DNA of 64,000 nt from Promethearchaeota archaeon Loki_b32. Its GTDB lineage: Archaea; Asgardarchaeota; Lokiarchaeia; Sigyniarchaeales; SOKP01. Position 1 is the stretch's first letter. Every line of letters begins with the position of its first letter. The notes beneath the pieces were generated by a model. The model did no database searches. It saw only the letters and a list, made by a program, of their open reading frames with translations, and was not told the origin of the DNA. Positions 7,160 to 38,887 of the stretch are shown piece after piece. Location of the stretch: NCBI GenBank assembly GCA_005223125.1, contig NJBH01000006.1, forward strand, positions 32,001 through 96,000, in the 5' to 3' direction. The translations under genes were made by a program, and so were the position numbers.

Positions 7160-9070
7160 TTAATACATACTAAAATCTTTTATTGAAAAATTATTGATTT
7201 TCTTGAGTAATGGGAAGAGGCTCAAAAAATTAAAAATAATAAATATAAAAAATAAAAATAAAAACAAAACAAATGGAATATATAAAGGAGGCAAATAAAC
7301 TCGATCGAAAAGAAATAAAGAATTAATAATCATTCCTATTGCTAAACTTAAGAGTAAAGAGGGCATTAAAACAAAGGTTGACTCTAGGAAAAGAATCTTC
7401 TTTATAGATTTAGTTTTTGAACCTATGGCACGCATAATTAAAAAATCCTTCGCTTTCTCCATTATTCCTGCCTTTTGGTAATTATATAATGAAAAAATAG
7501 CAATTATAGAGATTATAATCATTAATAACATAGGATAGATAGATAAATTACCTAAATATTCCATATTATCTTGAAAGATATTATCTAATCTTAAATGTGT
7601 GAAATTTTCTCCAATTTTTTGAGTAATATTATCAAGTTCATCTTTTATCCCATTATACGCTCCAGAACTTAGCTTTAGCATTATAATATTAACCTCTTCA
7701 TTTGTAAGGTTTAAAATCTTCCTAGATTCTTCAATGCTTAGATAACCAGCCCATCCAGAATAAAAACTATCAATTATTACACCGGAAACATGAAATCTCC
7801 TATTAAAAGTAGTAAGTTCTAAACTTTGATCTAAAGCATATTCAAAAAAGTTATAAGCTAGTCCATCTCCAATAGTCATATTATCATAGGCATCCACTTC
7901 AGTAAAGAATCTTCCTTCGATCTCAAAATTTTGAATTAAATTTTCAGGATTGACTCCGATAATAGGGATAATACCTTTTCGATTTTGTCCGACAACAGTA
8001 TATGTACCATCACCAGAAATATGAATGCCTGGAATTTCTTCAACATTATAAAAATTTATTATACGTTCATCAATTTTTTCGATTTCTTCAATGTTATATA
8101 ATTCATTCATATCACTTAAGTTGAAAAGATAATGTGATTCTGTAAAATTTATGTTCTTCTCATCAATTAAAATAGTAGGATCAGAAAACATCTTATACAT
8201 TAAGGAGTAATTGGATACTACATCTTGATGTCCAATAATTACAATGTTTTCACTTTGGGATTTATGAATCCATTCTTGAGATGATATTCGTAGAACTAAT
8301 GCACCTAAACCTAATGTGAAGATCATCAATCCAATTATAGAGAATAAAATTAAATACCTCTTAAATTCGCCTGTTTTTCTCAATGTATTGACAGTAGCAA
8401 TTTTAAAATTAATTCCAATTGAAGTCAACCATCTTGGTACTAATTTTAATCGCTTAGAAGCATCATAGTTATAAGGAATATCCTTTGAGAAAGAACTTAT
8501 AATTTTCTGTTTTCCAATTTTTCGAATTGTATAACCAGTTATTAAAAAAATCCCAAATATACATGAGAAAAACAATATAGGCGTATACACTAAATCAATT
8601 ACCAATATAATTGGAAAATTAAAAATATTCATGATCCAGGCGAAAATTCCAAATATTATCAAACCCAAAACTAATCCTAATAGAAAACCAATAAAAAATA
8701 GTATGTAAGCTTCCAATAGATAAAAACTATATAATTTACGGGGGAGTGTACCTAAAGATTTCATAATGGCTATATCTCTTTTTTTAGAAATAACCAATGT
8801 AGTTGTAACAGAAAGAATTATAACAATCGCTAAAGAAAGAAATAAAATTTGAATTAAATTATTAAATTCTTTATAGATAAGATTGATTCCTCCAGAGAAA
8901 TAATATATATTTGTATATGTAGTTTGAGTAAGTATATTTATACCTAATGATGATGTGAAATATATTAAGAACTCTGTAAATGCGATTATTATTATAATTA
9001 TTAATAAAAATGGAAAATTAGAATGCCTTTTTCTGTAAAAATCTTTTAACGCAAAATCAAACGATGACAT
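7160..9070 (-). CDS. ABC transporter permease, FtsX/MacB family
   Basis: Two FtsX-type motifs (KKRDIAIMKSLG; KDFLIMRAIGS), multiple TM helices, large extracytoplasmic loop. Confidence 0.85.
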   Translation of the reverse strand: MSSFDFALKDFYRKRHSNFPFLLIIIIIIAFTEFLIYFTSSLGINILTQTTYTNIYYFSGGINLIYKEFNNLIQILFLSLAIVIILSVTTTLVISKKRDIAIMKSLGTLPRKLYSFYLLEAYILFFIGFLLGLVLGLIIFGIFAWIMNIFNFPIILVIDLVYTPILFFSCIFGIFLITGYTIRKIGKQKIISSFSKDIPYNYDASKRLKLVPRWLTSIGINFKIATVNTLRKTGEFKRYLILFSIIGLMIFTLGLGALVLRISSQEWIHKSQSENIVIIGHQDVVSNYSLMYKMFSDPTILIDEKNINFTESHYLFNLSDMNELYNIEEIEKIDERIINFYNVEEIPGIHISGDGTYTVVGQNRKGIIPIIGVNPENLIQNFEIEGRFFTEVDAYDNMTIGDGLAYNFFEYALDQSLELTTFNRRFHVSGVIIDSFYSGWAGYLSIEESRKILNLTNEEVNIIMLKLSSGAYNGIKDELDNITQKIGENFTHLRLDNIFQDNMEYLGNLSIYPMLLMIIISIIAIFSLYNYQKAGIMEKAKDFLIMRAIGSKTKSIKKILFLESTFVLMPSLLLSLAIGMIINSLFLFDRVYLPPLYIPFVLFLFLFFIFIIFNFLSLFPLLKKINNFSIKDFSMY

Positions 9071-9085
9071 GACATATTTATTTTT

Positions 9086-9883
9086 CTAATTTTTAATATC
9101 ATTGATTATTTCTTCTTGTATTATTCTTCCATCCTCAAATGAAATAATTCTATCGGCTAAACTTATTATATAATCATCATGAGTAGCGATTATAATAGTT
9201 CTAATATTATTTTTTAATTCTTTAAAAAGATCTCTAATAAATTGACTAGTCTTCTTATCTAAATTTGCAGTTGGTTCATCAGCGATAATTAAAGGAGGAT
9301 CATTCGCTAATGCTCGTGCTATCGCTACTCTTTGCTGTTCTCCAGCAGATAATTGGAATGGTAAATGTTCTCTTCTATCACTAAGACCCATGTTTGCTAA
9401 TAATTTCATGGCGTGTTTCCTCTGATCTTTAAAATCCACTCCCGAAAGATTCATAGGAAACATAATGTTTTCCTCAGCAGTAAGAGTACTAATAAGATTG
9501 TAATTTTGAAATACAAATCCAGAATTTAATAATCTCCAAGTTGTTAATGATTCTTGTTCCATGTCTGAGATTTTCACACCAAAACTATATATAATTCCAC
9601 TGTTAGGTGTGTCTAATCCTCCTATTAAGTTTAGTAAAGATGTCTTACCTGCCCCACTAGGTCCCTTAATAACTAAAAATTCTCCATTATATATTGATAA
9701 TGATACATTATCCACTGCTCGAACAATATAATCTCCAATTTCAAAATCCTTAACTAAATCCTTACAATAAACTGCTGGTTTCTTTGTTAAATCTTTTAAT
9801 AAATCATTTTCTGATCTATCTTTATTATCTTCTAATGAACTTTTTCTCGTTTTATTGTCCGAAGAATTTTCTTTTTCTAGCAC
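9086..9883 (-). CDS. ABC transporter ATP-binding protein, LolD/MacB family
   Basis: Walker A GPSGAGKT, LSAGEQQRVAIARAL, ADEPTANLD, ATHD. Confidence 0.95.
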   Translation of the reverse strand: MLEKENSSDNKTRKSSLEDNKDRSENDLLKDLTKKPAVYCKDLVKDFEIGDYIVRAVDNVSLSIYNGEFLVIKGPSGAGKTSLLNLIGGLDTPNSGIIYSFGVKISDMEQESLTTWRLLNSGFVFQNYNLISTLTAEENIMFPMNLSGVDFKDQRKHAMKLLANMGLSDRREHLPFQLSAGEQQRVAIARALANDPPLIIADEPTANLDKKTSQFIRDLFKELKNNIRTIIIATHDDYIISLADRIISFEDGRIIQEEIINDIKN

Positions 9884-10379: not shown

Positions 10380-11015
10380 ATGGATTTTGAAAAATTAACA
10401 GAACTGGTAATTGAATTAGAAGTAGATGATATTGCTGACGCTGTGAAAGAAGCTTTAAATGAAGGTAAAGATGCTTTTGAAATATTAAATTCTCTAACAA
10501 AAGGTATGGATGAAGTTGGACGCCGTTATGAAGAAAAAGAATATTATTTAACAGAACTTGTATTGGCAGGAGAAACAATGAAGGAAGCTTTTAATGTTTT
10601 AAAGCCTGCGTTAGCTGCAGCAGGTAAAGCAGAAGATAGTGTGAAAATAATTCTAGCTACAGTTAAAGGAGATAATCATGATATAGGAAAGAACATTTTA
10701 GGTTCTCTTCTTTTAAGTTCTGGTTTTGAGCTTTATGACTTAGGGATGGATGTTGATGAAAATACAATAATTGAAAAAGTAAAGGAAACTGGAGCAGATA
10801 TTATCGCTTTGAGTACTTTACTAACTATGACAGTGGAACACATAAAAGTTGTTCATGAAGCTTTACAAGCAGCAGGACTACGTGATAAGGTTAAATTAAT
10901 TGTGGGAGGAGCTCCTTTAAATATGGAACTTGCAAAAAGACTTGGAGCTGATGATTTTGCTGATGATGCCGTTGATGGTGTAAGGCACATAAAGCGACTT
11001 TCTGGTATTGAATAA
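10380..11015 (+). CDS. Corrinoid (cobalamin-binding) protein, MtbC/MttC family
   Basis: Helical cap with GMDEVGRRYE, DxHxxG motif DNHDIGKN, S-x-L, VGGAP. Confidence 0.92.
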   Translation: MDFEKLTELVIELEVDDIADAVKEALNEGKDAFEILNSLTKGMDEVGRRYEEKEYYLTELVLAGETMKEAFNVLKPALAAAGKAEDSVKIILATVKGDNHDIGKNILGSLLLSSGFELYDLGMDVDENTIIEKVKETGADIIALSTLLTMTVEHIKVVHEALQAAGLRDKVKLIVGGAPLNMELAKRLGADDFADDAVDGVRHIKRLSGIE

Positions 11016-11237: not shown

Positions 11238-11492
11238 TTGAATAATAAACAAACTGAAGGATTTGAAATTGATAAAGAATTAGATACTCGTGGTTTATTT
11301 TGTCCCGAACCGTTATTTGAAGTGAGAAATTTAAGTGAAACTCTTAATGAAGGGCAATGTTTTAAAGTTATAGCTAATGATCCCGCTGCAGAAGAAGATC
11401 TTAAAAGATGGGCTAAAAGAACCGATACAAAGGTTGTAGAATTTAGTAAAGATGGTGATGATTTAATTTTTATTTTTAAGAAAACAAAATGA
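11238..11492 (+). CDS. tusA: TusA/SirA sulfur-carrier protein
   Basis: LDTRGLFCPEP (CPxP), ANDPAAEED; GGAGG SD upstream of TTG. Confidence 0.92.
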   Translation: MNNKQTEGFEIDKELDTRGLFCPEPLFEVRNLSETLNEGQCFKVIANDPAAEEDLKRWAKRTDTKVVEFSKDGDDLIFIFKKTK

Positions 11493-11508: not shown

Positions 11509-12702
11509 ATGAGTTTTTATTTAGACTATCAAGCGGCAAAACCTGTAGATGTGCGCGTTGTTTCAGAAATGACTATGTATTTAAATCAAAAATTTGCTAA
11601 TCCATCTTCATTGCATTGTGAAGGAGATGAAGCTACTGATGCTCTAAGTGATTCAAGACAAAAAGTAGCGGATTTTATAAATTCTCCAAATCCAGATTCT
11701 ATAATTTTTACATCGGGGGCTACAGAATCAAATAACTTAGCAATAATAGGAGCTGCAATGAGAAATCAAAAGAAAGGAAACCACATCATAATTTCAGAGA
11801 TAGAACATATATCAATTTTAAATATTGCAAAATATTTAGAACGTCAAGGCTTTAAAGTAAGTAGAGTTCCAGTTGATCAATATGGTATTGTGAGACTAGA
11901 TAAACTAGCACGATTAATTACTGATAAAACTATTTTAATTTCAATCTCAACTGCAAGTAATGAGGTAGGTTCTCTGCAACCAATAGGAAAAATCAGCGAT
12001 ATTGCTACAAAAAATAATATCTTATTTCATACTGATGCGGTGGCTAGTGAAAGTGTTATCCCATTAGATGTTCAAGAAATTCCATTTGACTTAGTAACGT
12101 TATCATCAAACGATATTTATGGTCCCAGAGGTGTAGGTGCTCTATACTTGAAAAAAGGAGTACGTGTAAATCCAATCATTATTGGAGGTGGACAAGAAAG
12201 AGGATTAAGATCTGGTTCTGAAAATGTACCTGGAATAGTGGGATTTGCAAAAGCGGCTGAAATTATGAAAGCAGAAATTAATAATGACGCAGAGAGATTA
12301 AAAATTTTAAGAGATAAAGTGATTAAAGGAATTTTAGAGTCAATTCCAAAATCTTATTTGAATGGTCATCCTGAATTAAGACTTCCTTATAATGCACATT
12401 TTAGATTTGATTATATCGAGGGTGAATCATTGATTCTTAGTCTAAAAGATGAAAATGTTGCCGTCGCAACAGGATCAGCATGTTCTTCAAAGACATTAGA
12501 ACCTTCACATACATTAATCGCAATGGGTTTACTACACGAAGAAGCTCACGGATCTCTTGTGGTAACTTTAGGTCGTTATACTCAAGAAAAAGATATTGAT
12601 AAACTTATAGAAGTCTTACCTAACATAGTAAAAAGATTACGATTATTATCCCCTTTAACGCCTCCTGATTTAATTAAAAAATATAATGAGGTGAATGAAT
12701 AA
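11509..12702 (+). CDS. iscS: IscS/NifS-family cysteine desulfurase-like protein with PLP lysine replaced by Asp
   Basis: YLDY, FTSGATESNN, GGGQERGLRSGSEN, GSACSS; SSNDIYGP in place of S-x-HK-x-YGP. Confidence 0.9.
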   Translation: MSFYLDYQAAKPVDVRVVSEMTMYLNQKFANPSSLHCEGDEATDALSDSRQKVADFINSPNPDSIIFTSGATESNNLAIIGAAMRNQKKGNHIIISEIEHISILNIAKYLERQGFKVSRVPVDQYGIVRLDKLARLITDKTILISISTASNEVGSLQPIGKISDIATKNNILFHTDAVASESVIPLDVQEIPFDLVTLSSNDIYGPRGVGALYLKKGVRVNPIIIGGGQERGLRSGSENVPGIVGFAKAAEIMKAEINNDAERLKILRDKVIKGILESIPKSYLNGHPELRLPYNAHFRFDYIEGESLILSLKDENVAVATGSACSSKTLEPSHTLIAMGLLHEEAHGSLVVTLGRYTQEKDIDKLIEVLPNIVKRLRLLSPLTPPDLIKKYNEVNE

Positions 12703-13507
12703 AATGAAATCAACTGAGTATACCGAAAAAGTTTTAGATCATTTTCGCAATCCGAGAAATGTAGGTGTCATAGAAAACCCTGATGGTTACGGAAAGGTTG
12801 GAAATCCTATTTGTGGTGATTTAATGTATATGTATATAAAGGTTGCCAAAAATAATAATGATGAAGAATATATTGAAGATATTAAATTTAAAACATTTGG
12901 CTGCGGCTCTGCGGTAGCAACTTCTTCTATGATCACAGAAATGGCTAAAGGAATTACACTAGATGAAGCTTATAAGATTACAAGACAAGATGTAGCTGAT
13001 GAATTAGAAGGACTTCCTCCAATTAAAATGCATTGTTCAAATCTCGCTGCTGATGCATTAAAAGCGGCTATTGACAATTATAGAACTGGCGCTGAACCTG
13101 AGGTTGAAGTAGCAACTTCATGCCAACTTGAAATTAGAGTTATCCTTGGTTTTGATGAGTTTCTTGGAAAGGGAGCATTTAGGGAAGCTCCAGAAAATTT
13201 AGAAGAACTTAGAGATAAAAGAATTTTGATAATTGATTCTGGTGACAATTCTTTAGAGCTTGCCTTACAATTAACAGAATATACAGGTAGAGTTATTGTT
13301 GTTACCTCTTCAAAAGGAGTACCAGGTAGGGAAGAAATTGCTAAAAATCTTAAAAAATCTGATGTGAAAATATTACATCAATCTGACCTTTTAGAAGTTA
13401 AAGGAGAACTCGATGAGGTAGAACGTGTAGTTTTACATGATTACGATGAAGACGAGAATTATGAGCTCTACGTAGATGTTGTTATTAAGCTAAATTATAG
13501 AGGTTAA
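12695..13507 (+). CDS. iscU: IscU/NifU-N Fe-S scaffold fused to a degenerate thioredoxin-reductase NADPH domain
   Basis: YTEKVLDHFRNPRNVG, NPICGD, FGCGSA, KMHCSNLA; residues ~150-270 are colinear with the TrxB NADPH domain at 37958-38887. Confidence 0.88.
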   Translation: MNKMKSTEYTEKVLDHFRNPRNVGVIENPDGYGKVGNPICGDLMYMYIKVAKNNNDEEYIEDIKFKTFGCGSAVATSSMITEMAKGITLDEAYKITRQDVADELEGLPPIKMHCSNLAADALKAAIDNYRTGAEPEVEVATSCQLEIRVILGFDEFLGKGAFREAPENLEELRDKRILIIDSGDNSLELALQLTEYTGRVIVVTSSKGVPGREEIAKNLKKSDVKILHQSDLLEVKGELDEVERVVLHDYDEDENYELYVDVVIKLNYRG

Positions 13508-13666
13508 TTTTTTTCTTTTTCTTATTGAGTATCTAATGAAATATTTATTTATCATTAATTTTTATTATTTTTATTCAGACATTAATCTCACTTTACTTGC
13601 TATATATCCCTCATTTTTGGAAAGATGTGAACAACCACTCTACTAGCATATCTTGATTATCTTGAA

Positions 13667-14728: not shown

Positions 14729-15862
14729 CTATTTTCTTATTGACTCTAAAATATAATCAGTTATATATTTACTTTCTTTGTCCATTTGATTCTTATAATT
14801 AACATATCTAAAATTAAAAACGCATAAAGGACAAGAGGACACAATTTCTTTTGTATCAATATTATTGAATAATTCTTTACCTATTTTAATACAAATGCTA
14901 CTATCAACACCTCTAATTCCGGAACCTGATCCACAACAAGGAGATTCTTCTGGATTTGTAGTTAATTCTTTAAATTCTAACCCACATTTCTTTAAAAGCT
15001 CTCGAGGTTCAGAGTAAAGAAGACCACTTTTATATTTTCTCCCAACTCGGCAAGGATCATGATAGGTAATTGGTTTATTCAACGGTTTTAAAGTAATTTT
15101 TCCTTCTTTTTCTAAATCATAAATAACATCAATAATATGTCTCACATTTACTTCAAAATCCTTAAAATATTTCCTGTAAACTTTGTAAAAGGCATATAAA
15201 CATCCACCACATGTAACAATTAAGTTCTTTACTCCGATTTTTTTAAAGAGTTCAATGTTTTCCTGAAAAATCTTTTTAGCAACATCAAGATTTCCAGCGG
15301 AATATACATATTCTCCACAACATGGTTCCTTTTCTAAAATTTTAAAGTTATAACCAGCAAGTATTAAAATTTTATAGGGAGTAAGAGCACTTTCTTTCAC
15401 ACGAAACGAAGACATGCATCCTAAAAATAACAGAGTATCTGAATCTTTCTTTTCAAATAATTCTTTTGTTTTATAACTTTCAGGTAACCAATTTAATCTC
15501 TCTTCTGGGTTTCCACCAACAGAGTTGTCTTTTTCTATAATTCCTCTTATGATTTTATTGTGTATTTCTAGTGGTGCTTTATTTTCTTCTACAAGTCTAA
15601 CTTTAGATGAATGAATAATTTCCGATATTTGAATTTCTTGTTGACAAGTTAAATCACATAATGCACATAATGTACAAGTATATAGACTAATGCGTTCTTC
15701 TTCTGAGATCTGATTATTAGAAAAAACTTTTTCAGCTATTTTTAATCTTCCGTTAGGTGATTTTAATTCATCGTTAGTAACCATGTAAGTGTCGCATATT
15801 TCCATACAATCCTTACAGTCTATACATGAATTTATTTCGGTTAATAATTTATTAACGTCCAT
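14729..15862 (-). CDS. HdrD/GlpC-like Fe-S oxidoreductase (2x[4Fe-4S] plus CCG domains)
   Basis: CxxCxxCxxxC twice; LGC, PCCG, TCGGC, YHDPC, CCGSG, SCPLC. Confidence 0.9.
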   Translation of the reverse strand: MDVNKLLTEINSCIDCKDCMEICDTYMVTNDELKSPNGRLKIAEKVFSNNQISEEERISLYTCTLCALCDLTCQQEIQISEIIHSSKVRLVEENKAPLEIHNKIIRGIIEKDNSVGGNPEERLNWLPESYKTKELFEKKDSDTLLFLGCMSSFRVKESALTPYKILILAGYNFKILEKEPCCGEYVYSAGNLDVAKKIFQENIELFKKIGVKNLIVTCGGCLYAFYKVYRKYFKDFEVNVRHIIDVIYDLEKEGKITLKPLNKPITYHDPCRVGRKYKSGLLYSEPRELLKKCGLEFKELTTNPEESPCCGSGSGIRGVDSSICIKIGKELFNNIDTKEIVSSCPLCVFNFRYVNYKNQMDKESKYITDYILESIRK

Positions 15863-15991: not shown

Positions 15992-18379
15992 ATGAAAAGG
16001 GTAGTAATAGTTGGAGGAGTTGCAGGCGGAGCTTCTGCAGCTGCTAGATTAAGACGTTTAAAGGAAGATTTTGAAATTATAATGTTGGATAAAGGTCCAT
16101 ATGTCTCATTTGCAAATTGTGGATTATCTTATTATGTGGGGAATATAATAAAGGATCGTGAGTCTTTAGAGTTAGTTACACCAGAAAGCTTTCTTGAAAG
16201 ATTCAATATTGATGTTAGGGTTAATAGTGAGGCCACTTTAATTGATAAAGTAAATAAACGAATCAAAGTAAAAGATTTAAGACAAAATAATGTGTACACT
16301 CTTGAATATGATTATTTAATCTTAGCAACAGGGTCAAAACCAATAGTACCTCCATTTGTAGGGCTTGAATATGTTCCTTATTTTACGGTATGGACTATTC
16401 CTGATGCTGTAAAAATAAGAGATTATGTTGAAAAATATCATATAAAAAACGCAGTTATCGTTGGTGGTGGTTTTATTGGATTAGAAATGGCAGAAAACTT
16501 AGTAGAGAAAGGAGTGAAAGTAAAAATTGTTGAAATGCGGAATCAAGTTATGCCTCCAATTGATAAAGAAATAGCACAATTTATTCATCAAGAATTATTA
16601 CTGAATGGAGTTTGTCTTGTTTTAGAAGATCCAGTAGATTCCTTCGGGAGGACAGAAAAAGATAAGCCGTTTGTTAAGACAAAAAGTGGTCGAATAATAG
16701 AAACAGATTTAATTATTTTATCTATTGGTATTAGACCAGAAAGTACTTTAGCTAAAAATACTGATTTAGACTTGACAGAGAGAGGATATGTTATTGTTAA
16801 TAACAAAATGCAGACTTCTGATCCGAATATTTATGCTGTAGGTGATATAGTTCAAGTTCAACATTTTCAAACTAAAAAGCCGATATCAATAGCTTTAGCA
16901 GGCCCAGCAAATAAACAAGGTAGAATAGCAGCAGATAATATTGCTGGAAGAAATTCTGAATATAAGGGTGTTATGGGAGCATCCGTTGTTAAGGTTTTCG
17001 ATGTAACAGTCGCGTCTGTGGGTTTAACAGAAAAACAATTAAAAAATTTAGAAATCAATTATAATAAAATATATATTCACCCTAATAATCATGCAGGGTA
17101 CTATCCTGGAGCTATCCCTATAACACTCAAATTAATTTTTGAAGTTCCTAGTGGTAAAATTCTTGGGGCTCAAGCTGTTGGAGGACCAGGTACAGAAAAA
17201 AGAATTGATGTCATCTCCGCTGTAATCAAATTTGATGGCACCGTATTTGATTTGGAAGAATTAGAATTAACTTATGCCCCTCCATATGGTTCTGCAAAAG
17301 ATCCGGTTAATATGGCTGGATTCGTTGCAGCTAATTATCTTAGAGAGGATATGCCCATTTGGCACTGGCATGAATTAACTAATGTGAAAACTAACGGTGC
17401 ACTTTTATTAGATGTTAGAACAAAAGAAGAATTTGCTGCTAGAACCATTGATGGCTCATTAAATATTCCAATTGAGGAACTCAGAAAGCGATTAGATGAA
17501 ATTCCTAAGGATCAATCAATATATGTTTACTGCGAAGTTGGATATAGGAGTTATTTAGCATTGAGAATTCTACTGCAAAGTGGGTTTAATGAAGTCTATG
17601 AATTAACTGGGGGGTTTAAAATTTTCGAGATGGCAAATGCTACTACAGAAGAAATAATGGCTGCCTGTGGTGGTTCCGAGTATGTTATTGAAGAATTTGT
17701 TCATGAAAAAGCTACTGAAAGTGAAGATTATATAGAAGTCGATGCGTGTGGATTATCTTGTCCAGGTCCTCTCAATGCATTAATTAAGTCTCTTGATACT
17801 TTACCTGAAAATAAAAAATTAAAGATTTACACCACTGACCCGGGATTTAAATCTAGTGTTGAGGCATATTCTAAACTAAATGATGCTGTAAAATTGTTAA
17901 GTTTAGGAAAAGAACGAGGCAAATTAGTCGCTACTTTAATAAAAATCCAACCCACAGTGGAAATAATAACACCTGTTAAAAAGAAATCCAGAAAAGAATT
18001 AAGATCTCCGGATGCACCTTCAATTTCAGATATTAACGCTGATGAACTATTTGAGCGCATTAGTACTGAGGATGAGCCACCACTTATGATTGATGTTCGA
18101 ACGCCTCAAGAATATAATGGGCAACATGGTTATATAAAAAATACGAAATTAATTCCTTTAGGTGAATTATTAAATAATCCAGATGCCATAAAAGATTATA
18201 AAAGTGAAGAAATCATAGCAATTTGTCACTCTGGTTCGCGTTCGATGATGGCAGCTCAAATTTTAGCTCAAGCGGGATTTAAAGATATTAGAAATTTAAC
18301 TGGTGGAATGATGGCGTGGCATAGAAAAGGTTTTCCTGTGGAGTTAAAAATAAGAGGAATGACAGAAACTTATTATTAA
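15992..18379 (+). CDS. CoA-disulfide/persulfide reductase with rhodanese-TusA-rhodanese tail
   Basis: GGVAGG FAD motif, SFANCGL active Cys, GGGFIG, YAPPY; rhodanese CEVGYRS; TusA CGLSCPGP; second rhodanese CHSGSRS. Confidence 0.9.
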   Translation: MKRVVIVGGVAGGASAAARLRRLKEDFEIIMLDKGPYVSFANCGLSYYVGNIIKDRESLELVTPESFLERFNIDVRVNSEATLIDKVNKRIKVKDLRQNNVYTLEYDYLILATGSKPIVPPFVGLEYVPYFTVWTIPDAVKIRDYVEKYHIKNAVIVGGGFIGLEMAENLVEKGVKVKIVEMRNQVMPPIDKEIAQFIHQELLLNGVCLVLEDPVDSFGRTEKDKPFVKTKSGRIIETDLIILSIGIRPESTLAKNTDLDLTERGYVIVNNKMQTSDPNIYAVGDIVQVQHFQTKKPISIALAGPANKQGRIAADNIAGRNSEYKGVMGASVVKVFDVTVASVGLTEKQLKNLEINYNKIYIHPNNHAGYYPGAIPITLKLIFEVPSGKILGAQAVGGPGTEKRIDVISAVIKFDGTVFDLEELELTYAPPYGSAKDPVNMAGFVAANYLREDMPIWHWHELTNVKTNGALLLDVRTKEEFAARTIDGSLNIPIEELRKRLDEIPKDQSIYVYCEVGYRSYLALRILLQSGFNEVYELTGGFKIFEMANATTEEIMAACGGSEYVIEEFVHEKATESEDYIEVDACGLSCPGPLNALIKSLDTLPENKKLKIYTTDPGFKSSVEAYSKLNDAVKLLSLGKERGKLVATLIKIQPTVEIITPVKKKSRKELRSPDAPSISDINADELFERISTEDEPPLMIDVRTPQEYNGQHGYIKNTKLIPLGELLNNPDAIKDYKSEEIIAICHSGSRSMMAAQILAQAGFKDIRNLTGGMMAWHRKGFPVELKIRGMTETYY

Positions 18380-37272: not shown

Positions 37273-37956
37273 ATGTCTTCAGACGATCGATATAAGGAAA
37301 TAATTAGACGTGAAATGTCTAAATTAAAAAAGCCTGTTAAACTGAAGGTTTTTACTTCACAAAGAATAGGACCAAATGGAACTCAAATAAGAGCTTGTAT
37401 GGATTGTGGTGAATTTATGGCTTTATTAAGGATTTATGAAGAAAATTCAAACGGTATGCTGACAATTGAAGAACTTTCAATAGATGATAACCCAGAATTC
37501 GCAAAAAAGTTTGACATTAATCGAGTCCCAACAATACTTTTTATAGATGATAATGGTCGAGAGATAATCAGATATTTAGCAGCTCCAAAAGGGGGAGAGA
37601 TCCAACCTTTCATCCAGGCTATATTTAACTTTGCAGGAACTCCCAATTATTATGAGGCTACAATAAAAAAAAATCTAGATAGGATACAACCATCTACTAT
37701 TAAGGTAATGATGACAGAGACGTGCCCCTATTGTCCTCAAGTAATTGCTATAAGTAATTCCTTCGCAATTGCTTCTGAGGGGAAGATTAGAACCGTAATT
37801 ATCGATATCGCGGCAAATCCTGATATAGGTCAATATTATGATGCTGCTGGTGTTCCATATACTATTATTAATGATCAAAAGACTTTAGTGGGAATGGTTG
37901 GGCCAAATGAAATTTTAAGCGCCTTGATTGGAGGGAATATTCGTGTTCAATATTGA
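37273..37956 (+). CDS. Protein disulfide oxidoreductase (two thioredoxin folds), copy 2
   Basis: CMDC and CPYC sites; colinear with the upstream paralogue. Confidence 0.88.
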   Translation: MSSDDRYKEIIRREMSKLKKPVKLKVFTSQRIGPNGTQIRACMDCGEFMALLRIYEENSNGMLTIEELSIDDNPEFAKKFDINRVPTILFIDDNGREIIRYLAAPKGGEIQPFIQAIFNFAGTPNYYEATIKKNLDRIQPSTIKVMMTETCPYCPQVIAISNSFAIASEGKIRTVIIDIAANPDIGQYYDAAGVPYTIINDQKTLVGMVGPNEILSALIGGNIRVQY

Positions 37957-37957
37957 T

Positions 37958-38887
37958 ATGGAAGCTATAGATTTCGAAAAAACTTATGATCTAATTGTAT
38001 TAGGGGGTGGACCCACTGCGATTGGATGTGCCATTTATGCTGCTCGATTCGCGATGGATGTACTGGTTGTTGGAAAAACTTTTGGTGGATTGATAGCGAC
38101 TACTCATATTGTTGAAAATTATCCTGCAATTACATCCATAAGTGGTCAAGGATTAATGGATATGTTTAAAGATCATATGGACTCACTTAGTATCCCATAT
38201 ATATCAGATCAGATACGCAGTATTGATAAAGTTGATGATTATTTTGAACTTCGTTCCTTCTTTCAGAAATTTAAAGCACATTCAATTTGCATAGCAACTG
38301 GTTCAGAAAGACGGAAATTAGGTATACCTGGAGAAGAGGAATATACTGGTCGAGGTGTTTCATATTGTGCCACTTGTGATGGTCCCTTTTACAAAAATAA
38401 AGTAGTATGTGTAATAGGAGGAAGTGATTCTGCTGCTAAAGAAGCGCTGTTTTTAGCACAAAACACCAAAAAAGTATATATTATTTATCGGGGAGAAGAT
38501 ATTAGAGCTGAACCTATAAACAAAAAACGTGTATTTGAAAATGAAAAAATAGAAATTATCTACAAAACTAATGTTGTTGAAATAAAAGGGGAAGGGAATG
38601 TAAAATCTGTAGTTTTTGATAATGATATCGAACTCGTTGTTGATGGTGTGTTTGTTGAGATTGGTTCAATTCCTAATTCTGATTTAGCAAAACGTATTGG
38701 TGTAGAAACAAATGAAAAAGGAGAAATTAAAATAAATCGTAAGTCAGAAACAAATATTACTGGTATTTTTGCTGCAGGAGATGTTGCTGATGCCCCTTTT
38801 AAGCAAGCAATTACAGGAGTTTCTGAAGGAGTAATAGCTGCATACTCTGCTTTTGATTATGTTAAAGAAATGAATATAGAATATTAG
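37958..38887 (+). CDS. trxB: Thioredoxin reductase
   Basis: GGGP, VENYP, IATG, GVSYCATCDG, GGSDSA, FAAGD; ATG at 37958 preferred over TTG at 37928. Confidence 0.93.
   Translation: MEAIDFEKTYDLIVLGGGPTAIGCAIYAARFAMDVLVVGKTFGGLIATTHIVENYPAITSISGQGLMDMFKDHMDSLSIPYISDQIRSIDKVDDYFELRSFFQKFKAHSICIATGSERRKLGIPGEEEYTGRGVSYCATCDGPFYKNKVVCVIGGSDSAAKEALFLAQNTKKVYIIYRGEDIRAEPINKKRVFENEKIEIIYKTNVVEIKGEGNVKSVVFDNDIELVVDGVFVEIGSIPNSDLAKRIGVETNEKGEIKINRKSETNITGIFAAGDVADAPFKQAITGVSEGVIAAYSAFDYVKEMNIEY

Follow-up and report, generated by a model that had tools for sequence, protein, structure and literature searches.

A U-type iron-sulfur scaffold protein fused to an eroded reductase-like NAD(P)H domain, encoded beside a lysine-less IscS in Asgard archaea

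INTRODUCTION

The closest described relatives of the system treated here are the IscS2-IscU complex of Archaeoglobus fulgidus and MIS, the minimal archaeal system (MisS/MisU) of iron-sulfur (Fe-S) cluster assembly. In the A. fulgidus complex (PDB entries 4eb5, 4eb7, 4hvk and 4r5f) an aspartate stands in place of the lysine that binds pyridoxal phosphate (PLP), and the partner is an IscU with three cysteines; because of this replacement IscS2 is reported to have no desulfurase activity, and to give a cysteine ligand to the [2Fe-2S] cluster on IscU (PMC7585200). MIS consists of an adjacent pair of IscS- and IscU-like proteins encoded in archaeal clusters without a chaperone, a ferredoxin or an A-type carrier, and its electron donor was called unclear in a 2026 review (PMC13066941). 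Here we describe a locus that resembles both, its adjacent iscS- and iscU-like genes likewise standing without such accessory genes. It lies in a stretch of 64,000 nucleotides (nt) from Promethearchaeota archaeon Loki_b32 (Lokiarchaeia; contig NJBH01000006.1, positions 32,001 to 96,000; G+C content about 29%), hereafter called the window, in which an iscS-like gene without the PLP lysine is followed by an iscU gene whose product carries an additional C-terminal domain. A sequence-only reading of the window had taken this domain for a degenerate NADPH domain of thioredoxin reductase (TrxR) and the gene for a member of a three-gene operon with tusA and a lysine-to-aspartate iscS.

Several features set the locus apart from these systems. 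For the A. fulgidus complex neither a C-terminal Rossmann domain nor a TusA or DsrE partner is reported in the literature covered, and its IscU is, as far as is known, a plain single-domain protein. In contrast to MIS as described, the MisS considered here is without the PLP lysine, the MisU has the extra domain, and TusA, usually together with DsrE, is part of the unit. A literature search of partial coverage yielded no description of an IscU or NifU fused to a TrxR-like domain. The IscS-IscU pair as such is of a known kind, that of MIS and A. fulgidus, to which the locus adds the relic of a reductase domain and a sulfur relay; what is new is the affinity of this domain to ferredoxin-NADP reductases (FNRs) without a CxxC motif, the existence of full-length fusions in Jordarchaeia and a second archaeal group, and the form without the FAD halves found in Lokiarchaeia and Thorarchaeia.

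RESULTS

A scaffold domain and a reductase-like Rossmann domain in one chain

The fused protein begins with a complete U-type scaffold. Residues 8-131 match NifU_N (PF01592) with an E-value of 4.5e-47 (159.8 bits; cut-off 22) and score above the cut-off of TIGR03419 (191.1 versus 187.9 bits), and Cys40, Asp42, Cys70, His113 and Cys114 are invariant across an alignment of relatives (alignment A1), which bears out the earlier claim of an IscU with all three cysteines. The profile of NifU proper (TIGR02000) is matched over its positions 3-123 only; the score of 153 bits falls well short of the cut-off (273), and neither a central ferredoxin-like nor a C-terminal Nfu domain is present.

Taken alone, the C-terminal part exceeds the cut-off of PF00070 (Pyr_redox; 26.9 versus 22 bits) and aligns to TIGR01292, the thioredoxin-reductase profile of 300 positions, between positions 139 and 230 (E 3e-10), where its score of 39 bits is far below full-enzyme level (cut-off 343). 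AlphaFold predicts two confident domains for the whole protein (mean pLDDT, the predicted local distance difference test, 86.2; about 90 for the IscU domain), with a disordered linker (pLDDT below 50) at residues 139-147. Modelled separately, the C-terminal 126 residues (145-270) reach a pLDDT of 84.8 and a predicted TM-score (pTM) of 0.80. In a Foldseek comparison of this model with the PDB every top match was the NAD(P)H domain of a TrxR or a TrxR-like FNR, the best being 2zbw_A (E 4.5e-11, TM-score 0.86, rmsd 1.5 Å over 123 columns). The domain therefore does model as a Rossmann fold of the TrxR superfamily, as had been expected.

The sequence-only reading had derived this likeness from a colinearity with the TrxB encoded elsewhere in the window. 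Homology to the TrxR family stands, because of the profiles, the fold and a BLASTP match (35% identity, E 7e-16) between the C-terminal domain and a full-length fused relative from Jordarchaeia described below, whereas the colinear pieces gave no significant BLASTP match to TrxB itself (E 0.37-1.6). The NADPH loop of TrxB reads GGSDSA, not GGGDSA, and the start of its gene is overlapped by a preceding open reading frame (ORF) of 227 amino acids (aa).

Alignment A1 and motif reading confirmed that the CxxC motif is absent, that the glycine-rich loop is changed to DSGD and that there is no FAD domain: both the N-terminal GxGxxG and the C-terminal GD motif of the latter are missing. The complete dinucleotide loop of the window protein is DSGDNS (residues 181-186), where GxGxxA or GGGxSA would be canonical, and the HRR motif of the 2'-phosphate site is replaced by TSS(K). 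The best matches among solved proteins, by sequence as well as by fold, are the TrxR-like ferredoxin/flavodoxin-NADP+ oxidoreductases (2zbw, B. subtilis YumC 3lzw and 5xhu), which likewise have no CxxC. Compared with these, the window protein comprises the NAD(P)H domain only, without the FAD halves and the C-terminal aromatic tail, and its dinucleotide and 2'-phosphate motifs are eroded. Proteins of this architecture, which we call short forms, have a specific TGRV motif, which the window protein shares and beside which it has an acidic DEDEN hairpin; a cysteine in the linker (TSCQ) is conserved within the window's own family only.

Distribution and selection

Searching with residues 140-270 returned 205 clusters at 90% identity, nearly all of them proteins of 266-270 aa with a NifU_N domain and nearly all from metagenome-assembled genomes of Promethearchaeota or Thorarchaeota. 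When the Asgard phylum was sampled with one genome per species, the domain was matched in 232 of 400 genomes; these include 115 of the 134 genomes of the window's family and 77 of the 89 of a second large family, and several other Asgard families among the 400 genomes had no match. Fused forms of 270 and 280 aa are encoded, respectively, in a closed genome of 4.36 Mb and another of 6.04 Mb, both from the order of the window's genome, so that the fusion is found well beyond this assembly.

The extra domain is under strong purifying selection: over 71 gene pairs in which dS was not saturated, its median dN/dS is 0.10, and that of the IscU part 0.046. Neither truncated nor frameshifted copies of the fusion were seen in 33 Asgard loci, 28 of them from the window's family, sampled at species level, and five from further afield; these loci serve as context throughout. 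Stand-alone genes for the domain amounted to 15 short matches only; these were treated as split annotations or fragments, since the contig of one of them (L008, JBHLLG010000004.1) reads as a continuous ORF of 267 aa. In public annotation the protein is labelled NifU or is split into NifU and a 'NAD-binding protein'; within fusion ORFs the NCBI calls are a 'NAD-binding protein' of 92-145 aa or a 'NAD(P)/FAD-dependent oxidoreductase' of 326 aa (L008; P0314 / P0434-P0444). A continuous fusion ORF was verified at two loci (L008 and L034), and the split gene calls thus hide the fused architecture in public records.

Full-length IscU-flavoprotein fusions and the origin of the domain

A search of 1.8 billion cluster representatives revealed a protein of 443 aa (P0123) in which IscU is followed by a complete TrxR-like flavoprotein, and a closed Asgard genome (L034) encodes a second such long form of 448 aa. 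All six sampled genomes of the family of L034 match the domain at similar E-values, and source names place this type of long form in Jordarchaeia / Freyarchaeum. According to alignment A1, the short form coincides exactly with the middle, NAD(P)H-binding domain of the long forms, without their FAD parts of about 115 aa on the N-terminal and about 70 aa on the C-terminal side. The long forms retain the FAD motifs. Their dinucleotide loops, together with those of the short forms, make up a series: the P0123 type has the canonical GGGNSA, with HRK or HRR after strand 2; the Jordarchaeial long form has GNGDQA and no HRR; and the short forms have [D/E/H/Y]-x-G-[D/E]-x-S, with T-S/P-x-K after strand 2.

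Full-length genes of the P0123 type occur on at least 15 metagenome contigs (65-87% identity), in the order DsrE-like, IscS, IscU-flavoprotein, and the fusion is followed directly on its 3' side by a gene for a flavodoxin (PF00258, 5e-17) in seven loci. We consider these long forms archaeal on account of their Pth2-type neighbours and of the Archaea label of an Atlas cluster of 68 NifU_N + Pyr_redox_2 proteins; the commonest phylum in this cluster is Methanobacteriota, which, with the phylum known for 23 of the 68, is a lead rather than a determination. At one locus with the flavodoxin gene (L055, with the fusion at 8001-9335) the neighbours include an archaeal Pth2, DUF5749, a radical-SAM/SPASM gene and an NirDL-like siroheme decarboxylase. 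At a Jordarchaeial locus (L044) a 136-aa ORF without a Pfam match is located between iscS and the long iscU fusion.

In a tree of the NAD(P)H domain (53 proteins, 122 columns; unrooted, with the TrxR sample taken from matches to the long form) a split with support 100/99 separates canonical CxxC reductases from both fused types, short and long, and from stand-alone TrxR-like proteins without CxxC, and the short forms make up one group (100/100) on a long stem. Short forms outside the window's family also have the one-residue deletion at the former CxxC site that is common to CxxC-less relatives; the window's own family, unlike other short forms, has one extra residue there. Because of the split and the common deletion, the absence of CxxC is probably ancestral in the subfamily and would predate the truncation, rather than reflect decay after fusion. 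Of the proposal of a degenerate TrxR NADPH domain, the superfamily thus holds, whereas an origin from canonical TrxR does not, as the domain groups with CxxC-less TrxR-like flavoproteins. The trees leave the direction of change open, but derivation of the short form from a full-length fusion by loss is simpler, since the NAD(P)H domain sits inside the FAD domain and regaining both flanks would need a replacement event.

No close stand-alone homologue of the long-form flavoprotein was found in the window's genome, where the best matches are ordinary TrxR-like genes (31-35% identity). Two TrxR-like genes stand in tandem on another contig of this genome (C36): the first has CATC and HRR, and the second keeps the FAD motifs, has no CxxC and shows a degenerate NAD(P)H loop.

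The partner IscS and the sulfur-relay genes

Among solved proteins, A. fulgidus IscS2 (4eb5, 4hvk; 9.8e-137) is by far the nearest to the window's IscS, and by its sequence the lysine-to-aspartate IscS is of this already known type (PMC7585200). As Asp202 occupies the site of the PLP lysine, just as an aspartate does in the A. fulgidus enzyme that is reported to be inactive, it would not be expected to be an active desulfurase (PMC7585200). Its PLP-site motif SSND spans residues 199-202, and the loop cysteine is kept (GSAC). The anticipated co-occurrence of the fusion with an IscS of this type proved general: in all 33 Asgard loci the partner has SSND or SSNE together with the loop cysteine, and at the loci of long forms the motif is SSND wherever it could be read (6/6).

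TusA with a CPxP cysteine is encoded upstream of iscS in 28/28 loci of the window's family and in 5/5 distant ones, and the linkage of tusA and the lysine-less iscS with the fusion gene was confirmed in the window by the CPEP motif of TusA and the SSND of IscS. A unit of three genes, as first described, is not the usual arrangement: in many relatives there are four, with a gene of the DsrE family between tusA and iscS (13 of the 28 family loci and four of the five distant ones). In the window's genome this DsrE-like gene lies elsewhere, beside feoAB on contig C70, between a gene for an FeoB-like G-protein and a small membrane ORF and with two FeoA-like genes upstream (Feo labels by eye). The cluster shares its CPxP TusA and DsrE-family protein with the TusA-DsrE relay, which in described systems serves the thiolation of tRNA, the synthesis of the molybdenum cofactor or the dissimilatory oxidation of sulfur and is not known to be tied to an IscS/IscU pair.

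Gene layout and neighbourhood

The coordinates of all features are collected in Table 1. By direct reading of the sequence, tusA starts with TTG behind an AGGAGG-like ribosome-binding site, and a Shine-Dalgarno-like site precedes each of tusA, iscS and the iscU fusion. The stop of tusA and the start of iscS are separated by 16 nt, and the fusion gene overlaps the iscS stop by 8 nt; an alternative ATG at 12704, better spaced from its GAGGTG site, would give 267 aa, a length common among relatives. The T-rich run directly 3' of the fusion is a plausible candidate for an archaeal terminator of the tusA-iscS-iscU unit.

Table 1. Features of the window and of related contigs (positions in the window unless a contig or locus is named)
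Feature	Position	Strand	Remarks
B12-binding (corrinoid) protein	10380..11015	+	PF02310 + PF02607; upstream neighbour in most of the 28 family loci
tusA, sulfur-carrier protein	11238..11492	+	PF01206 at 1.4e-18; active-site CPEP, nt 11301-11312
iscS-like gene without PLP lysine	11509..12702	+	Aminotran_5 at 1.9e-73; SSND, nt 12103-12114; GSAC, nt 12472-12483
Fused iscU gene	12695..13507	+	ORF of 270 aa
IscU / U-type scaffold domain	12716..13087	+	Residues 8-131; Cys40, Asp42, Cys70, His113, Cys114, LPPIK
Variable linker	13088..13135	+	Residues 132-147; predicted disordered
Relic NAD(P)H-binding domain	13136..13498	+	Residues 148-268 of the fused protein
T-rich run	13508..13535	+	Directly 3' of the fusion stop
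HdrD-like protein	14729..15862	-	4Fe-4S dicluster + two CCG domains; about half of the 28 family loci
CoA-disulfide-reductase-like flavoprotein fused to rhodanese-TusA-rhodanese	15992..18379	+	795 aa; profile matches
TrxB	37273-38887, with the preceding 227-aa ORF	+	
Canonical IscS	C21:175844-177067		Window's genome; about 6 kb from plain IscU
Plain IscU	C21:182731-183108		Window's genome
Third, divergent NifU_N gene	C36:3014-3373		Window's genome; 172-aa frame
Two tandem TrxR-like genes	C36:162914-164861		Window's genome
DsrE-like gene	C70:27332-27685	-	Window's genome
Long form, 448 aa	L034:1504-2847		Closed Asgard genome
ORF between iscS and long iscU fusion	L044:8364-8774		Jordarchaeial locus
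Flavodoxin gene	L055:9592-10023		3' of a P0123-type fusion

The gene for the CoA-disulfide-reductase-rhodanese-TusA-rhodanese protein stands beside the cluster in 27 of the 28 family loci; at the five distant Asgard loci it was not found within about 8 kb of the cluster. The protein could be what provides sulfane sulfur or sulfide.

No match to SUFBD_core (PF01458) or to an A-type carrier (PF01521) was obtained in the window's genome (95.5% complete), in which the controls respond. Most genomes of the window's family have only a weak SufBD-like match of about 325 aa, and sister families have a normal SufB. As no gene of the SufB/D family was found, the IscS/IscU systems may carry much, most or all of Fe-S biogenesis in this genome, which is incomplete. 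A third NifU_N gene, divergent in sequence, is also present (Table 1).

DISCUSSION

We propose that the protein is a U-type scaffold (IscU/MisU) carrying the non-catalytic relic of a fused CxxC-less FNR-like reductase, which now serves as a structural or docking module, a reading that we believe has about an even chance of being right. Its starting point would be an ancestor with scaffold and built-in reductase in one chain, comparable to NifU with its ferredoxin-like domain, in which the fused reductase passed electrons from NAD(P)H or flavodoxin to cluster assembly. Since the PLP lysine is absent, the partner IscS would not be the maker of sulfur and, as in A. fulgidus, would probably lend only a cysteine ligand; the sulfur could come from sulfide or from a persulfide relay of TusA and DsrE, possibly with a rhodanese. 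In the Loki- and Thorarchaeial lineages both FAD halves would have been lost, leaving a domain without hydride chemistry in cis that may be retained as a structural or docking part of the IscS-IscU complex, with IscS itself, TusA/DsrE, or a reductase or flavodoxin acting in trans as candidate partners.

Two known arrangements offer parallels. NifU likewise combines a U-type scaffold with a redox module, its central [2Fe-2S] ferredoxin-like domain, in one chain; the module of the fusion is of unrelated fold and, judging from its motifs, the window form would no longer be redox-capable. The ferredoxin and ferredoxin reductase that supply the iron-sulfur cluster (ISC) system may be functional analogues of the full-length fusions, in which a flavoprotein would feed persulfide reduction or cluster coupling, although the fused flavoprotein has no homology to reductases of the adrenodoxin-reductase type. 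The sequence-only reading had suggested that the extra domain docks a reductase or senses a nucleotide. The full-length fusions give an evolutionary basis to this possible role.

Several observations weigh against our proposal. A. fulgidus pairs its lysine-less IscS with a plain IscU, so that the extra domain is not obligatory for an IscS of this type. The window's genome also encodes a canonical IscS (SAHK, with the PLP lysine) and a plain single-domain IscU. The pTM of the whole-protein model is 0.50, which makes the orientation of the two domains unreliable. The three groups without CxxC come out as a polytomy when the tree is built from the NAD(P)H domain, and the IscU-domain tree is unresolved; with the fused proteins constrained together, p-AU is 0.087, and a single fusion event is not settled. 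Finally, the short forms conserve the central glycine of the dinucleotide loop and, behind strand 2, a lysine, and some phosphate-bearing ligand may therefore still bind.

In a bolder version, to which we give distinctly less credence and which is tentative, the full-length fusions would be the missing electron donor of MIS: the flavoprotein, with flavodoxin or NAD(P)H, would reduce persulfide delivered by TusA/DsrE on a desulfurase-dead IscS-IscU pair, and the Loki- and Thorarchaeial relic would be the docking surface for a now separate reductase or flavodoxin.

A first alternative is that the relic still binds a nucleotide or dinucleotide, e.g. NAD(P)(H) or ADP, and senses the redox or energy state, thereby controlling when clusters are assembled or released. 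In its favour, the domain has kept an intact Rossmann fold, all short forms conserve Gly183, the Asp/Glu and the Ser that follow it and the lysine behind strand 2, and the strong purifying selection would be compatible with a ligand site. Yet the first glycine of GxGxxA has become Asp, Glu, His or Tyr, the third position holds Ser or Leu, the HRR motif has been lost, and the loops vary by lineage (DSGD, DTGD, ENGE, YNGD, YTSE), a variability not usually seen where a ligand site is conserved. We therefore regard a sensor as unlikely, if still the strongest of the competing explanations.

Within the window's family the domain has a net charge of -10 to -14, which together with its conserved DEDE hairpin recalls an iron-binding or iron-delivery module like frataxin/CyaY, in a system without a known iron donor. 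Acidity is not universal, though: two other short-form lineages have net charges of 0 and -2, and Jordarchaeial long forms as well as some ordinary TrxR domains are as acidic as the window-family relic. Since there is also no similarity to frataxin, we rejected such a donor as very improbable.

That the relic might be a neutral leftover without function would agree with the loss of its catalytic motifs and FAD domain; the selection data largely refute this, and the retention of length and motifs across Asgard classes (more than 200 clusters at 90% identity), with all copies intact in the 33 loci, makes it more improbable still than an iron module. Least credible of all, the TrxR likeness could be that of a generic Rossmann-like fold from another alpha/beta family, such as a receiver or helicase-C domain, a view for which there are weak sub-threshold Pfam and PDB matches (Helicase_C, Glycos_transf_2, CheY-like receiver), set against the uniform top Foldseek matches, the PF00070 score, the significant match to the same domain of the full-length fusions and the common indel at the CxxC site.

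The scaffold with a docking relic, as proposed here, touches on the question of the electron donor in minimal archaeal Fe-S assembly, and the supply of sulfur is likewise unsettled where the IscS partner is no desulfurase. The proteins described form a testable series, from a scaffold with an intact flavoprotein and an adjoining flavodoxin gene, through a partly eroded NAD(P)H site in Jordarchaeia, to the relic only in Lokiarchaeia, Thorarchaeia and relatives; all members of the series adjoin genes of a sulfur relay and an IscS without the PLP lysine. With the long forms at hand, the question of the electron donor becomes directly testable. Beyond this, the Fe-S assembly genes of Asgard archaea are relevant to the debate on where eukaryotic ISCU and NFS1 come from (PMC12872458).

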